From the NCBI GenBank assembly GCA_965214775.1, contig OZ243974.1:800001-864000 (forward strand): 64,000 nt of DNA, given 5' to 3'. The DNA is from Nitrosopumilus sp. GTDB taxonomy: Archaea; Thermoproteota; Nitrososphaeria; Nitrososphaerales; Nitrosopumilaceae. Shown here in pieces: positions 393 through 42,868 of this stretch; within the stretch, counting starts at the first letter, position 1, and each line of letters begins with the position of its first letter. A program made the position numbers and the translations under genes. The notes beneath the pieces were generated by a model. It made no database searches and was not told where the DNA came from. It was given only the letters and a program-made list of their open reading frames with translations.

Positions 393-518
393 GGTTGTCG
401 CCTAATTCCATTTACTTGACTCAATCTGCACATTTTTTCTGAATTTCCGCCCTTTTGCACGCCTGATCCACTGGTATCTCAACGGTTTTTAGGAATTCTG
501 GCAAATTAGGAAACAACC
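393..518. mobile_element. MITE family D, copy 1 (about 126 bp; TIR GGTTGTCGCCTAATT...AATTAGGAAACAACC)
   Basis: Imperfect 15-bp terminal inverted repeats; homologous over its length to 7476-7603. Confidence 0.8.
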
Positions 519-7475: not shown

Positions 7476-7603
7476 AGTTGTCGCCTAATTCCATTTAATT
7501 GACTCAATCTGCCATGTTTCTTTTTTGAATTTCCTCCCTTTTGCACGCATTCCATGTGGCATCTCAACGGTTTTCAGGAATTCTGGTAAATTAGGAGACA
7601 ACC
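7476..7603. mobile_element. MITE family D, copy 2
   Basis: GTTGTCGCCTAATT...AATTAGGAGACAACC; colinear with 393-518. Confidence 0.8.
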
Positions 7604-7898: not shown

Positions 7899-7933
7899 GG
7901 TTGTTTCCTAATTCCACTTGTTTGACTCAATCT
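7899..7933. mobile_element. Left end of a family D element, interrupted by the IS110-type insertion
   Basis: GGTTGTTTCCTAATTCCACTTGTTTGACTCAATCT matches the first 35 bp of copies 1 and 2. Confidence 0.7.
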
Positions 7934-7990
7934 CCCATATGAAATCGTACCTAATCCTACCGTGGACTCTTGCCAGCTTGATGTTCCAAA

Positions 7991-8218
7991 TCAGGACAAT
8001 GTTACTATGCGATGCATCCCCATATACTTTCTCTGCGTGAGAGTCTTGTTCTGAATGCGGTACTCTTCTCCGGTGGTCAGCATGTGCCAGATTATCTCCA
8101 GCATATGCCTTGCAACTGCAATCTTTGCCTTCTGCCATCCTCGTCTCTTTCTTATCCTTTCATATATAGAACCAAGTCTTGAGTCGTTTCGTACTGCTAC
8201 TGTGGCCGAGTTGATCAT
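7991..8218 (-). pseudogene. IS110 recombinase remnant: start MIN fused to the C-terminal region
   Basis: YERIRKRRGWQKAKIAVARHMLEIIWHMLTTGEEY is a typical IS110 C-terminus; SD GGAGGTGA precedes the ATG. Confidence 0.85.
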
Positions 8219-8239
8219 GTTATCACCTCCTTTTTGATC

Positions 8240-8400
8240 AAAATGCCTGATCCGGGCGGAATCTCCCATTCACCGTCTGCGCGGTATATTGCTTTCCGCC
8301 TGCTGTTGTTGCAAGTCAGTCTGTTTGACACCCTTGTACATGGTAAGATTAAATCGACTCTCAGGCCCAGCAGTAATTGTATATCACAGGATACAGATAA
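8240..8400 (-). ncRNA. Putative IS110 bridge RNA, copy 1 (target-binding hairpin 8314-8359; donor-binding hairpin 8256-8299)
   Basis: Covarying stems versus 34810-34960; loops match the element's own junctions; boundaries approximate. Confidence 0.75.
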
Positions 8401-8541
8401 GATTTCATATAGCGTCTGTTTGTTTGCATCGCAATTTATTTTGGCACCATCTGAATTTTGTTTTTGAGACACATATGGTTACACGTATACGATGATAATA
8501 ACGGACAGGAAAAAGTCCGGGGACGACAACAAGACGGTGGA

Positions 8542-31868: not shown

Positions 31869-33155
31869 CTACACGGCAGCCACCGCCTCTGCTATCCACT
31901 TGTTGTACAGCCATATCCTCAGCTTTACTTCCTGCACTATATTGGACCACTTGAGGGCCATTACGCATTCGCCGAACATGCGCTTTATGGCCGATATTAC
32001 GATCTCGACGATCCATCTGCTGCCAAAGCCGACCGTGCTCTTCCAGTACCGCAGGTTCTCCTGTCTTTCCTCCTTTGAGAGATCACCCACCGGCACCTCG
32101 GGGCCGCCCCCGAGCTGCCATCGCACCAGCCGGCCCCACTTGTCGCCGGTGCCCTTGCCCTTTGCATTGCAACTTGTCAAAAGCCGTATGAGTGGTTTTA
32201 TGCCGCGTTTGTGACACTCGGCTACGTTTTTCCTCGAGCCGTATCCGCCGTCTGCAAGCAGGATCTTTCCCGGTATATCTGGATTCGCGCCGGTGCCGAG
32301 TACAGCCAGCGGCGATGTCCCGTCTGCAAGCATGTTGGGGATCTTGACTGTATCCGCGCTGTCGGTGCGGCTCTGCTCCTCTTCCTTCTTGATGTTCTTG
32401 ACTGTATCCGCGCTGTCGGTGCGGCTCTGCTCCTCTTCCTTCTTGATGTTCTTGACTGCATCCGCGCTGTCGGTGCGGCTCTGCTCCTCTTCCTTCTTGA
32501 TGTTCTTGACTGCATCCGCGCTGTCGGTGCGGCTCTGCTCCTCTTCCTTCTTGATGTTCTTGACTGCATCCGCGCTGTCGGTGCGGCTCTGCTCCTCTTC
32601 CTCCTCTTCCTTCTTGATGTTCTTGACTGCATCCTCAAGCAGTGCCGGCAGTTCCGTGCTGTCGCCGATTGCATCACTTGTGACAGATACTGCCAGCACC
32701 TGCTTGGTGTCTGCATCGACCATCAGGTGCATCTTGACAAATCCGCGCCTTACCTTCCATTTCTTGCATATCCACTCGCCCCGGTTGTGCTGCTTGAGGC
32801 CAGTGGCATCGGCTATCATGACCAGGTTGCGGGACTTGTCGCGCACCGTGATTATGTTCTCTGCAATGTCGACGTCAAGCTTCTGTATCCTTCTGAATAT
32901 CGTGGTGTAACACGGCGAGTCCGCACCCTTTAGCATCTCCCCGAGCATACCTGACAGCTGCCTGTACTTTAGCATGAATGCGGTCCTGAGGGCGGCTGCG
33001 GCCATTATCATGCCTTCTGCATACAGGAACGGGGCGCCCTCCTTGTGGCGGTTGGCAACCTTGAGATCCTTCTCCCAGTCCGGGTTGTACTTGACGACCA
33101 GGCCTGCCCCTCTCTCTACGTACTTTGCATTATCCGTGCGTGTCAATGTATACAA
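31869..33155 (-). CDS. IS5-family transposase with in-frame tandem repeat
   Basis: ADATG, ADGGY and RWIVEIVISAIKRMFG motifs. Confidence 0.9.
   Translation of the reverse strand: MYTLTRTDNAKYVERGAGLVVKYNPDWEKDLKVANRHKEGAPFLYAEGMIMAAAALRTAFMLKYRQLSGMLGEMLKGADSPCYTTIFRRIQKLDVDIAENIITVRDKSRNLVMIADATGLKQHNRGEWICKKWKVRRGFVKMHLMVDADTKQVLAVSVTSDAIGDSTELPALLEDAVKNIKKEEEEEEQSRTDSADAVKNIKKEEEQSRTDSADAVKNIKKEEEQSRTDSADAVKNIKKEEEQSRTDSADTVKNIKKEEEQSRTDSADTVKIPNMLADGTSPLAVLGTGANPDIPGKILLADGGYGSRKNVAECHKRGIKPLIRLLTSCNAKGKGTGDKWGRLVRWQLGGGPEVPVGDLSKEERQENLRYWKSTVGFGSRWIVEIVISAIKRMFGECVMALKWSNIVQEVKLRIWLYNKWIAEAVAAV
32342..32633 (-). repeat. 54-bp tandem repeat, five copies (AVKNIKKEEEQSRTDSAD)
   Basis: Direct period of 54; one unit has 9 extra bp. 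Confidence 0.95.
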
Positions 33156-34099: not shown

Positions 34100-34627
34100 A
34101 TGCAACATGCTGCACGGATACACGTAAGCGGAATCGTCCAAGGCGTCGGTTTTCGCTACCGGGTAAGGAGCGAGGCAGGCCGCCGGAGAATCACCGGACA
34201 CGTCGAGAACCTTGAGGACGGCACGGTCATGATAGAGTGCGAGGGCAAAAGGGAGGACATTGAGGGGCTTGTCGCCTCAATAAGGGACAGCAAAGAGCCG
34301 GTGCAGGTAGACGACATCGACGTGCAGTACTCAGAGGGTACCGGAAGGTTCAAGACATTCAGGATAGTGGCAGGAAACATGGAAAGCGAGATTGTCGAGG
34401 GCTTTGCTACCGGTGCCATGTACCTGAATGACATTGCCGCAGGGCAGAGACAGATGCTGGACAAGCAGGATCAGATGCTGGACAAGCAGGATCAGATGCT
34501 GGACAAGCAGGATCAGACCATAACGGAGATCCGAGATCTTTCATCCAACATCCACGAGATGCTTGACTCTCGGTTCGAGAGGATAGAAAACGACATAACC
34601 AAGATAAAATCAAAACTGCAGATATGA
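34100..34627 (+). CDS. Acylphosphatase-like protein with C-terminal coiled coil
   Basis: GIVQGVGFR...GHVENLEDGTV; (QMLDKQD)x3 from a 21-bp repeat at about 34451-34516. Confidence 0.88.
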   Translation: MQHAARIHVSGIVQGVGFRYRVRSEAGRRRITGHVENLEDGTVMIECEGKREDIEGLVASIRDSKEPVQVDDIDVQYSEGTGRFKTFRIVAGNMESEIVEGFATGAMYLNDIAAGQRQMLDKQDQMLDKQDQMLDKQDQTITEIRDLSSNIHEMLDSRFERIENDITKIKSKLQI

Positions 34628-34809
34628 CCCGCATCTGCCGGGGTGCGGTAAGGCCATAGGCCTGAACAATGAACTGACGCGCCCTAGGATGCGGCGTGAG
34701 GTACATGATGATCAGGATCTTGTCCGGCAGTGCAGCCTAGGGAGTGGTGGGATAAACTCCAATATCAAATTATGCTGATTCCTTGCAGTATGAGACGTTA
34801 TATCAAATC

Positions 34810-34960
34810 TTATCTGTAGCGGACGCCATATTATCCGTGTTGGGCCCAAGAGCCGAAGTAAACTTGCCACACATGAGGGCGCGTAAGAGACTGGCTCAGA
34901 GTAGACGGACGACGAAATGCCACATAATCGAGGGCGAATGGGAGTTTTCCGTTCAGTTGG
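34810..34960 (+). ncRNA. Putative IS110 bridge RNA, copy 2 (target-binding hairpin 34851-34896)
   Basis: Covarying stems; loops differ from copy 1; boundaries approximate. Confidence 0.72.
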
Positions 34961-35032
34961 GCACACACACTTTGATCAAAAAGGAGGTGATAAAATGATC
35001 AACATAGGAATAGACGTTCATAAGAAGACATG

Positions 35033-35123
35033 GTAAGAGTTTACCCCTCAGGCGACTCTGCTGGTCGGAGCCTTGATCACCGTGCCTACCACGTCGTATT
35101 TTCTGGAGGGGGTGAGCTCTTAC
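35033..35123. mobile_element. MITE family A (91 bp), 9-bp TSD GAAGACATG, inserted in the IS110 recombinase start
   Basis: TIR GTAAGAG(T/C)T(T/C)ACCCC; TSD at 35024-32 and 35124-32. Confidence 0.95.
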
Positions 35124-35154
35124 GAAGACATGTATAGTAACCATCAAAGACCAG

Positions 35155-35236
35155 GTACAACTTCAGGTCCTATTTATACTGGCAAGCAAATACTTCCTAG
35201 ATTCCTAGGCGGTTTAAATAGGACCTGAAGTTGTAC
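35155..35236. mobile_element. 82-bp MITE-like element with perfect 22-bp TIR
   Basis: GTACAACTTCAGGTCCTATTTA...TAAATAGGACCTGAAGTTGTAC. Confidence 0.8.
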
Positions 35237-35305
35237 GAAGTCTTTGAGTCAAAGTAGGTCATAACTACACGTAAAAAACCTCAATTATTTCTGCTCGTTG
35301 CTATA
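35237..35305 (-). mobile_element. Partial IS630 type A end/MITE
   Basis: Reverse complement of about 11818-11886. Confidence 0.85.
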
Positions 35306-35434
35306 CAAACAGTCGAGGCCTTTGACGGGCAATCTGACCGTGTTTTGACTCAAAGACTTTTACTGTTGCCATATTATTGGTACATTTTTCGAATGAACCA
35401 CTTTGCTAATTATTCAAAACGAGTATTGCGGATC

Positions 35435-41077: not shown

Positions 41078-42868
41078 ATGCACAAGAACTTACAATTATT
41101 TGCAGTCATGGTTTTTGCAGGAGTTTTGGTTACTTCAGTTCCCATGCAATCCGGATTTTCAGATACTGGATTTTCCAACGTAAAGAAGGCAACAGGCATA
41201 ATTATGAAGTTCTGTGAAAATCACGCGATTGTTCTAAATGATTGCATAGAAAAATATGACGGCTATACTTGGACTGACAGAGTTAATGTATTGATTTGGG
41301 CTCCGGGCTGGAATAATGATTCTGATAGTATAGATAAAATTGGCGAATCCGAAGGCACACCAATTACTGTTTCTACTAGAGCCGAATCAGTCGATACTGC
41401 AGTCTTTACCGAAACCGGCCCAGACACGGGAGTTTTCTTTGGCGTTGTAAAGTTATCTGGTCAGCATTTCACTGTTCATGATGAAAATGGCTCTGAGGTC
41501 AAGGGACACGGACATTTGTCAAGCAATTATGGAACCATTGTCAGTTCAGACTGTAGGGATCCAAATGAATCATCAGGAGGGCATAGTCACGGGTTTTTAA
41601 TTCCATTAATCAAGTTACAACATTTACTATTCTCAGCAGTCATGTATGATTTCATTCCAAATGCACATGGTCAGATGCATGGCGGTGATGACATGCATGG
41701 CGGTGATGACATGCATGGCGGTGATGACATGCATGGCGGTGATGACATGCATGGCGGTGATGACATGCATGGCGGTGATGACATGCATGGCGGTGATGAC
41801 ATGCATGGCGGTGATGACATGCATGGCGGTGATGACATGACAGATATTCCTACCTGTTCGAACAAGGGAGTTATTGGAAGCGCATTAGATGTTGCAGTTA
41901 GAGTTCCAACGGATTTACAAAATGGCGCAGTAACTGTTTCATGGGAGCCAAATGAGGACACTATAATTACCAAGACAGCAACTTGGGAATGGAGAACCGG
42001 AGAGATTTACTTTCAGAAAGATATGTACACAGTTGACGAATCGATAAAATTCACATTACATGATGCAGATTTATGGATTCATCACGCAGATTTCTTTACT
42101 TATTGGATGCGTGTGTATTCTGACAGCGATCAGGCAGGAATTTTCGTTCCAGTGCAATTCCAACCAAATCATGATCATGGAACTGAACCTGCATACGAAG
42201 GCGTGACTCAGAAACTGACTGAACCGGCCGCCTCATCACTTACAAAGTATACCCCTGATGGCGAATACAAGATCTACTTTTGGTGGCAACCAGGCGGCGT
42301 AATAGGTGTCGACCAAGATTATGACCTAAACATCATGGTTCATGACGGAATGACAGACATTCATCAAACACATCTTAGCTATGATATGGAAATTTATCTT
42401 AATGGCCAACTGATAGATGTTAGAGAAGATAGGTTCTCCGGTGACGGCCAAGGAATCGAAACGGTAAACTTTGCCGAAAGAGGCTCTGCAAAAGTTATCA
42501 TCAAGAACATCTTTGGAAATGACGTTGAACAAGATTTCTCCTTCCAAGTTGCCCCTGAAGCAATAATTGAAGAACTTGTTCCAAGACATCATGCATTTGA
42601 TACCCCCGTTGACGAATATGAAGGACGATATGGTGCTCACTACATTAACGTACTTGAGGGTGAATTCTATGTAACCCTTGAAGACGCTTCGTCAGAGCAA
42701 GACAGGCTCAGAGTCAATAATGGCGACACGATCACAGTAGAGTATGTCGACTTGACCTTGCCAGAGCCGTACACTTCTGCAGATTCGGTTGATATTCAGG
42801 CAACGACAACGGTTTATGATGTAAAGAACCCATTTGCCAAGGTTTCTGCAGAAAATACCTCCTCATAA
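41078..42868 (+). CDS. SlaA-related surface protein with His/Met-rich inserts
   Basis: YTWTD...ETGPDTGVF and LRVNNGDTITVEYVDLTLPEPY align to the SlaA C-terminal modules. Confidence 0.8.
   Translation: MHKNLQLFAVMVFAGVLVTSVPMQSGFSDTGFSNVKKATGIIMKFCENHAIVLNDCIEKYDGYTWTDRVNVLIWAPGWNNDSDSIDKIGESEGTPITVSTRAESVDTAVFTETGPDTGVFFGVVKLSGQHFTVHDENGSEVKGHGHLSSNYGTIVSSDCRDPNESSGGHSHGFLIPLIKLQHLLFSAVMYDFIPNAHGQMHGGDDMHGGDDMHGGDDMHGGDDMHGGDDMHGGDDMHGGDDMHGGDDMHGGDDMTDIPTCSNKGVIGSALDVAVRVPTDLQNGAVTVSWEPNEDTIITKTATWEWRTGEIYFQKDMYTVDESIKFTLHDADLWIHHADFFTYWMRVYSDSDQAGIFVPVQFQPNHDHGTEPAYEGVTQKLTEPAASSLTKYTPDGEYKIYFWWQPGGVIGVDQDYDLNIMVHDGMTDIHQTHLSYDMEIYLNGQLIDVREDRFSGDGQGIETVNFAERGSAKVIIKNIFGNDVEQDFSFQVAPEAIIEELVPRHHAFDTPVDEYEGRYGAHYINVLEGEFYVTLEDASSEQDRLRVNNGDTITVEYVDLTLPEPYTSADSVDIQATTTVYDVKNPFAKVSAENTSS
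41675..41836 (+). repeat. 18-bp perfect tandem repeat, nine copies (MHGGDD)
   Basis: ATGCATGGCGGTGATGAC x9. Confidence 0.97.

Follow-up and report, generated by a model that had tools for sequence, protein, structure and literature searches.

INTRODUCTION

Recombinases guided by bridge or seek RNAs are under development as programmable genome-writing tools. To our knowledge, the members of this system that have been described and tested are bacterial. Archaeal IS110 recombinases were already known, 662 of them having been counted (Vaysset 2024). In IS621, the guide for the left target lies on the 5′ side (A50-U58) and the guide for the right target on the 3′ side (G77-G80), the core is CT, and handshake positions follow the 3′ guides (Hiraizumi 2024, PMC11208158; Durrant 2024, PMC11208160). 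The guides are described as including the core, with a variable first loop and a conserved second one (Durrant 2024, PMC11208160). In the seekRNAs of the IS1111 type, the complement of the top strand comes first, and the elements have subterminal repeats with extensions of 7 nt and 3 nt; the non-coding region is described as usually downstream of the gene, with “a few” cases upstream, e.g., ISMtsp17 (Siddiquee 2024, PMC11187229). The logic by which the loops guide the choice of target has been demonstrated experimentally for IS621, ISEc11, and ISEc21 (Durrant 2024, PMC11208160; Siddiquee 2024, PMC11187229).

Here, we analyzed a stretch of 64,000 nucleotides (the window) of a Nitrosopumilus sp. 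genome (GCA_965214775.1, contig OZ243974.1, positions 800,001 to 864,000), in which position 1 is the first letter of the stretch. The genome, a single contig of 2.83 Mb, is referred to as G000. Our search of the literature found no published description of the archaeal element family reported below; the supplements of Siddiquee 2024 and Durrant 2024 may list related elements.

RESULTS AND DISCUSSION

A probable left end of a decayed IS110/IS1111 element

Judging from sequence comparison, window positions 34795 to 34994 (plus strand) very probably constitute the left end, with the bridge/seek RNA gene, of an IS110/IS1111-superfamily (DEDD recombinase) insertion sequence that has decayed. This non-coding left end, of the type that we call variant 2, was delimited by alignment to a first copy in the window (copy 1) and to 20 to 30 homologues. 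Its predicted RNA gene, with two loops, is ca. 70% identical to that of copy 1 (window 8415-7932, minus strand), and the alignment with the minus strand of 8415-8215 extends over ca. 245 nt. The original prediction had taken this stretch for a second bridge RNA with the scaffold of copy 1 and different target guides. All the strings that it quoted were found at the positions it gave, and this reading is supported by the stems conserved among homologues and by the agreement between guides and flanks, both described below.

Copy 1 is a 484-bp variant-1 element with an internal deletion (7932..8415, minus strand), flanked by CAAACAG on the left and ATTGAGT on the right. It retains the left end, the bridge RNA gene, the codons MIN fused to the last ca. 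75 codons of the recombinase gene, and the right end, and it is non-autonomous. The two sides of its target loop are ATTTAATCT and GTCAAACAG, for a site that reads CAAACAG before the element and ATTGAG after it.

The window copy, all of whose parts lie on the plus strand, is preceded by the left flank GTATG and the core AG (34788..34794), which are the first 7 nt of the terminal repeat of IS66-family elements and of the miniature inverted-repeat elements (MITEs) related to them. The element itself opens with ACGTTATATCAAATC (ACGTT) at 34795, followed by the subterminal inverted repeat ATATCAAATC (34800-34809). A possible 5′ stem-loop, CGGA...TCCG (34820..34837), was read from the sequence and left out of the pair counts since it has no shared alignment register; the equivalent in copy 1 has another stem (GTGAT/ATTAC) in a shifted register. 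The predicted target-binding domain (34850..34897), delimited by structure alignments and by comparing guides with flanks, consists of the outer stem GAGCCG/TGGCTC (34850-55 with 34892-97), the 5′ target loop AAGTAAACT (34856-64), reverse-complementary to AG plus the right target TTTACTT, an inner hairpin (34865-80), and the 3′ target loop GCGTAAGAG (34881-89), which equals the left target plus the core; the AC that comes next (34890-91) corresponds to nucleotides 1-2 of the element. The predicted donor-binding domain (34905..34952) has the outer stem ACGGA/TCCGT (34905-09 with 34948-52), the 5′ donor loop CGACGAAAT (34910-18), in which GAC pairs with element nucleotides 3-5 (GTT), an inner hairpin (34919-35), and the 3′ donor loop GAATGGGAG (34936-44), which matches the terminus of the right end, ATATGGGAG, and precedes TTT.

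Downstream of the ribosome-binding site GGAGGTGA (34983-90), the DEDD recombinase gene starts with the ATG at 34995 and continues for 12 codons (MINIGIDVHKKT; 34995..35032) that align to the start of homologous full genes. A 91-bp MITE derived from the IS66 family (35033..35123; terminal repeats GTAAGAGTTTACCCC and GGGGGTGAGCTCTTAC) is inserted there, within a 9-bp duplication, GAAGACATG (35024-32 and 35124-32), and the left terminus of this MITE (35033) is itself an unoccupied variant-2 target. The gene resumes for ca. 22 nt (TATAGTAACCATCAAAGACCAG; 35133..35154), as seen by comparison with a near-full copy at genome position 403965, and is ended by a second MITE with the terminal repeat GTACAACTTCAGGTCCTATTTA (about 35155-35238). 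On the other side, immediately upstream of the flank, a BLAST search with a right-end query located a 31-nt right-end fragment of another variant-2 copy in inverted orientation (34757..34787, minus strand; genome row 834753-), whose minus-strand sequence is TGCAAGGAATCAGCATAATTTGATATTGGAG and whose own flank, TTTATCCC (34756-34749, minus strand), is the body of a decayed MITE. The DNA upstream of the window copy is thus a fragment of another insertion sequence, with no recognizable MITE adjoining the copy. The junction (34623-34817) was present unchanged in contigs from four sequencing runs, all of one study.

Conserved structure of the predicted RNA

The stem changes between copy 1 and the window copy that the original prediction had pointed out are real: GAGTCG/TGACTT becomes GAGCCG/TGGCTC, and in both domains the inner hairpins have GCC/GGC in place of ACC/GGT. 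Among 22 homologues, 91.4% of the cells in the named stems could pair, compared with 32 to 49% when the partner was slid by 1 to 3 columns, and 8 pairs had changed on both sides; the donor outer stem (helix 3) is under-counted in this set because nine variant-1 rows of the alignment (A3) are one column out of register. With 34 sequences from 9 genomes aligned to a covariance model, the proportion was 96.6% (27 to 51% for slid partners), and changes on both sides affected 9 pairs and 66 cells. These figures overstate independence, the sequences being related and the alignment (A4) having been fitted to the model. The covariance model does not include the donor outer stem, which we read with a script. 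RNAalifold, applied to 24 sequences, recovered the outer and inner stems of the target domain and the inner stem of the donor domain. The predicted RNA thus has the two loops with conserved closing stems that characterize the IS110 superfamily, with compensatory changes in the three helices counted.

Three conserved G-U pairs (GU in 33/34 sequences, UG in 31/34, twice; G-U was kept in 21 to 33 sequences) would be C-A on the other strand, so that only an RNA of the sense strand fits, and an RNA from the antisense strand was rejected. A conserved small open reading frame (ORF) in the left end was also discarded, since indels of 1 nt and of 3 to 6 nt between variants break every frame.

The folding energy of single sequences was no better than that of shuffles (z = -0.11 for the window copy and -0.22 for copy 1), and the elements do carry subterminal inverted repeats at the DNA level, as would be expected if the likeness to a bridge RNA came from chance palindromes in a repeated element that is recognized as DNA, for instance as a cruciform or a protein-binding site. 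This origin is extremely improbable, given that the conserved G-U pairs would be C-A mismatches in DNA too, that compensatory changes occur in three helices, and that the covariance model found the motif in 9 of 151 genomes and only beside IS110-type recombinase genes or their remnants. A search of Rfam gave no match to a bridge-RNA family; only tRNA exceeded the gathering threshold, and two further matches were at chance level (E about 2).

The first loop matches both insertion flanks

As expected of the IS110 superfamily, the two sides of the first loop correspond to the two flanks of the insertion and include the core: the 3′ side equals the left flank plus the AG core, and the 5′ side, when reverse-complemented, gives AG plus the right flank. 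For the left guide (the 5 nt before the core), 127 of 145 positions matched in 29 distinct contexts, while shuffled pairings had a mean of 61.8 and a maximum of 97, with 0 of 100,000 reaching the observed value. When elements from six more genomes were added (47 elements, 26 guide 5-mers), the match was 206/235 (shuffles: mean, 89.9; maximum, 129; none of 100,000 as high). Along similar lines, the right guide, available for 14 elements, matched at 52 of 70 positions, and none of 100,000 shuffles did as well (mean, 31.9; maximum, 50). As the elements are related, these comparisons with shuffles overstate the independence of the matches. There were misfits on both sides, namely 2169388 (1/5), 1690520 (2/5), and L089 (2/5) for the left guide and, for the right one, 2634801 (2/5) and two right ends fused to internal sequence of an insertion sequence.

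In the window copy, the flank GTATGAG agrees with the guide GTAAGAG at 6 of 7 positions, as had been noted from the sequence, and the other flank is indeed lost together with the right end. Intact copies of this variant had been predicted to be flanked by GTA(A/T/C)G-AG on the left and by AGTTTAC on the right. All 11 variant-2/3 left ends of G000 that keep their flank, and 6 of 6 in a related genome, show the predicted left flank. Among the 12 variant-2 right ends of G000, seven are followed by TTTAC, two by TTTAT, and three by other sequences. The one fully intact variant-2 copy that we found, L065, belongs to a related genome and has a recombinase ORF of 365 aa; it is preceded by GTAAGAG and ends in GATATGGGAG (element terminus GGGAG), with TTTACCCCTCAGG as the right flank, so that AG is followed by TTTACCCC as predicted, and the prediction passed this check. 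The insertion involves no duplication beyond the 2-nt core, as the empty site GTAAGAGTTTACCCC compares with an occupied one in which GTAAGAG precedes the element and TTTACCCC comes after its terminal GGGAG (L065). The variant-1 site GGTTTATAGATCTCC was also found in both empty and occupied forms.

The structure lies directly upstream of a ribosome-binding site and an ATG, and it could be asked whether it is merely the 5′ leader of the recombinase mRNA, involved in translational control, with the matches between loops and flanks caused otherwise, e.g., by a choice of site by subfamily-specific proteins. Since subfamilies inherit guide and target together, part of the correlation could be phylogenetic. 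Nevertheless, loop and flank agree position by position in 26 guide classes (with one element per class, 108 of 130 positions match against 48.8 expected), and recombinases that are 90 to 98% identical were found behind different guides. Single-nucleotide compensations also occur: in L067, the loop AAGTAAACT has become AAGTAACCT, and the right flank, GTTACG, shows the corresponding single change from TTTAC to GTTAC. L062, also with the loop AAGTAACCT, is a misfit (right end GGGGG, then TCACC). Together with the guide logic shown in experiments for the bacterial elements cited above, these observations make a mere leader very improbable, and we favor a guide RNA whose first loop specifies the target.

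The original prediction had further taken the match in the window copy as independent support for covariation between loop and target. This holds across the 26 guide classes of the family, from which the independence of the test comes. It does not hold within variant 2, whose copies are not independent tests of the guide because their conserved flanks come from the termini of a single repeated MITE/IS66 family.

The target is the terminus of IS66-family elements and MITEs

The variant-2 target, GTA(A/C/T)GAG followed by TTTACCCC, corresponds to the 15 nt at the outer edge of the terminal inverted repeat in an IS66-family element and in its ca. 91-bp MITEs. The IS66-family element is 1,557 bp long (PF03050 at 8.5e-34), and about 14 full-length ends were seen. 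BLAST gave 103 matches to IS66/MITE termini in G000, many of them corresponding to the unoccupied site GTAAGAGTTTACCCC (ca. 100 occurrences). That the target is a MITE/IS66 terminus explains why the sequence upstream of GTAxGAG varies while one and the same MITE body follows downstream in every case. Since one insertion sequence family lands on the ends of another, some of the dense nesting of mobile elements in G000 is also accounted for. Variant 1 also appears to land in a repeated element, given that copy 1 has its right flank within one of the repeats GTTGTCGCCTAATTCCATTTA.TTGACTCAATCT found at window positions 394-429, 7477-7512, and 7900-7935.

Other repeats were also recorded. The ca. 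91-bp MITEs are inserted even within other insertion sequences. A short element, CTCAATTATTTCTGCTCGTTGCTATAC.. (window 35251-35324), is very highly repeated, with 3 copies in the window and a summed contig depth in the four sequencing runs that is the highest by a wide margin; at G000 369543 it adjoins a variant-1-like left end. Coding tandem repeats of 18 nt × 9 (rich in His, Gly, and Asp), 54 nt × 6, and 21 nt × 3 are located at window positions 41650-41875, 32281-32671, and 34444-34517, respectively.

The second loop and the ends of the element

The second loop matches the two ends of the element itself, again as in the IS110 superfamily, although its 3′ side offers no covariation. The 3′ donor loop GAATGGGAG and the right end ..ATATGGGAG share 7 contiguous nucleotides; this guide is nearly invariant and for that reason cannot be tested by covariation. 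The 9-mer GAATGGGAG by itself is unremarkable, with 2 occurrences in the window and two or more matches in 18 of 100 shuffles. The 5′ side is more informative. In 29 of 33 sequences, its triplet pairs fully with left-end nucleotides 3-5, whereas five slid registers gave 0 of 33; four compensated states occur (AGC/GCT, AAC or GAC/GTT, GGC or GGU/GCC, and AGU/ACU), and RNAalifold gave the columns of the triplet as pairs 3-5:125-127. The claim that the donor guide is unchanged between the two copies therefore stands for the 9-mer GAATGGGAG and fails for the 5′ triplet, which goes from AGC in copy 1 to GAC in the window copy alongside a change of element nucleotides 3-5 from GCT to GTT (ACGCT to ACGTT). 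Only 3 of the 9 nt on this 5′ side clearly pair, and it ends in AU, not in the core complement CU.

We also looked at handshake-like positions, i.e., whether the 2 nt after the 3′ guides match the partner DNA. The two nucleotides after the left guide equal element nucleotides 1-2 in 22 of 33 sequences, and the donor domain was mixed on inspection by eye, so that such positions were discarded as inconsistent across the family. Between copy 1 and the window copy the match does hold, the nucleotides after GGGAG changing from AT to TT and the start of the right flank changing likewise.

The ends carry perfect 10-bp subterminal repeats (GATTTCATAT/ATATGAAATC in variant 1 and GATTTGATAT/ATATCAAATC in variant 2), with terminal extensions of 7 nt (AG+ACGYT) before the left repeat and 3 nt (GGG) after the right one. 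Beyond the stop codon of the recombinase, the right end extends for about 100 nt.

Copies in the genome and decay of the window copy

G000 contains more than 30 left ends of the element family, which were sorted into variants 1, 2, and 3. Variant 1, the type of copy 1, has three intact genes (359/376 aa), and its recombinases are 55 to 58% identical to those of variant 2. For the latter, a tblastn search of G000 found no intact recombinase gene; the sole near-full one, at genome position 403965, is interrupted by a MITE, and its right end is damaged. The window copy is unable to move on its own: a MITE breaks off its recombinase gene after 12 codons, it lacks the right end, and this genome yielded no intact variant-2 recombinase. 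It is most likely an inactive relic, in which the RNA gene still looks intact.

Recombinase-less derivatives of ca. 473 to 484 bp, of two deletion types, were found at window 7932-8415 (minus strand) and at G000 181547, 2787936, 2726224, 2784518, and 2831779. These mini-elements retain both ends and their own bridge-RNA gene and occupy different sites with different guides. Their presence at several sites with different guides suggests mobilization in trans within variant 1.

This apparent trans-mobilization raises the question of whether the orphan RNA gene of the window copy could be live, that is, transcribed and used in trans by a variant-1 recombinase, in which case it would recombine IS66/MITE termini or mobilize variant-2 remnants. 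Its left end is identical to that of the intact L065 element at 184 of 200 nt, with the same loops and stems and all the differences outside the guides; three intact variant-1 ORFs are present in the genome; and both variants have the scaffold and 3′ donor guide GAAUGGGAG in common. On the other hand, without a right end the window copy cannot serve as a donor, variant 2 differs from variant 1 in its donor triplet and left end, and many variant-2 copies are full of MITE insertions, as expected of a family that is no longer moving. We consider such use unlikely and retain the inactive relic as the preferred reading.

Three junctions elsewhere in G000 involve the guide-coding DNA or the ends. 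At 1348672 (minus strand), a variant-1 left end breaks off right after its own left guide (..GTTCAGTAG), and the sequence adjoining the break, TTCCGAT, belongs to a 9/9 match to the right guide of that copy; from its sequence, this looks like a deletion via recombination of the guide-coding DNA with a right end. At 2788409, a right end (..CATATGGGAG) is fused to ACTGACTCG.., the part of the bridge-RNA gene that is 3′ of the left guide. On this evidence it is the reciprocal type of junction, the guide segment of the RNA gene having presumably served as a pseudo-target, and a preprint on “half-match” recombination provides a case for comparison. Finally, at 1916176 (minus strand), GTAAGAG is followed by CATAATTTGATATGGGAG and then TTTACG, so that all that lies between the left target plus core and the right target is the final 18 nt of a variant-2 right end, possibly the footprint of an aberrant excision.

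Recombinase family and distribution

The variant-1 ORF matched PF01548 (3.3e-28) and PF02371 (5.8e-21), and the split variant-2 gene at genome position 403965 gave 1.3e-24 and 1.7e-24 for its two halves with these families. The variant-1 protein also matched the solved structures of the IS621 and ISCro4 transposases (E about 1e-11). In the phmmer alignment to 8wt6_A (IS621), GIDV, cEST, kDDrvD, and rrDS align with the IS621 motifs, and the serine of RRDS aligns with chain residue 243, which would be S241 if the chain has two extra N-terminal residues; S241 is the catalytic serine of IS621 (Hiraizumi 2024, PMC11208158). The protein thus appears to have both the DEDD motif and the serine of the Tnp domain.

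The 9 genomes with the RNA motif, out of the 151 of the class that were searched with the covariance model, include G000 and belong to one family (6 of 48 genera); the search did not find the motif in the others. One of the matching genomes (G164) was left out of the analysis. Related elements appear in records titled Nitrososphaera, Nitrosopumilaceae/Nitrosopumilus, and Thaumarchaeota metagenome-assembled genomes. More distant IS110-type genes, 33 to 34% identical, were seen in L033 (genome G002) and L035 (genome G014); they have another upstream non-coding region, with a GGTGAATGGGGCTATCC-like motif, which is possibly another bridge-RNA scaffold.

Comparison with IS621 and IS1111 and a proposed mechanism

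The family resembles IS621 in the position of the RNA gene, in the left end and upstream of the recombinase gene; in the two pseudo-symmetric domains of stem, internal loop, and hairpin, the first variable (target) and the second conserved (donor); and in guides that carry the 2-nt core, with one discontinuous donor guide, a 5′ guide ending in CU, and a 3′ guide ending in AG. It differs in that the order of the guides on the sense strand is reversed, with the complement of the right target first, the core is AG (CT on the antisense strand only), the subterminal repeats are long, and the 5′ donor loop side lacks the core complement. None of the features taken as IS621-like, i.e., a left-target guide on the 5′ side, a CT core on the sense strand, and absent or very short repeats, was found. 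On the other strand, the geometry equals that of IS621, with CU at the end of the 5′ guide and AG at the end of the 3′ guide; the cassette of RNA gene and recombinase is thus inverted relative to the polarity of the site.

With the IS1111-type seekRNA elements (ISEc11, ISKpn4, ISPst6, and ISPa11) the family shares the DEDD recombinase, perfect subterminal repeats, extensions of 7 and 3 nt, targets in repeated sequences, natural reprogramming between relatives, and the complement of the top strand in first position, the 5′ loop being the reverse complement of the core plus the right flank. Its repeats of 10 bp are one nucleotide under the usual IS1111-type range of 11 to 13 bp, and we counted them as repeats of this type. 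Whereas the RNA gene of IS1111-type elements generally follows the recombinase gene, here it precedes the ATG in every copy. The archaeal hosts and a clear second (donor) loop also set the family apart. Based on the guide order, the ends, and the position of the RNA gene, we classify it as IS1111-like with the minority gene order. Landing site-specifically in the terminal inverted repeat of another transposable element is a further likeness to known elements, here in an archaeon and with an IS66-family/MITE terminus as the target.

Transcription of the RNA, its binding to the protein, and catalysis are steps that we infer for the family from its sequences. In an intact element, the RNA would fold into two domains of stem, internal loop, and hairpin. 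The guides of the first would pick the site GTAAG-AG-TTTACCCC, at the outer end of the IS66/MITE terminal repeat. In the second, GAAUGGGAG would match the right end (..ATATGGGAG) and the triplet on the 5′ side would pair with nucleotides 3-5 of the left end, the two donor guides jointly holding the excised circle where its ends are joined. Strand exchange by the recombinase would follow at the AG core.

Implications

This archaeal family is a fresh example of a known system: the bridge-RNA mechanism was published in 2024, and neither the features of the family nor the junctions reported here alter it. What the family adds is a pairing of IS1111-type ends and guide order with the gene order of the IS110 type, natural cases of recombination at the guide-coding DNA itself, and a compact natural set of re-targeted guides, covering at least 8 target classes in a single genome and 26 over the 9 genomes. 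The broadest scenario would be an IS1111-like archaeal lineage with the RNA gene upstream, restricted to one family of the ammonia-oxidizer type among those searched, that has spawned mini-elements and re-targeted orphan guides, with the orphans transcribed and used in trans. Taken as a whole, we regard it as rather improbable. If it were true, orphans used in trans would recombine IS66/MITE termini, and guide-coding DNA and transposon ends would be hot spots of rearrangement in the host genome.
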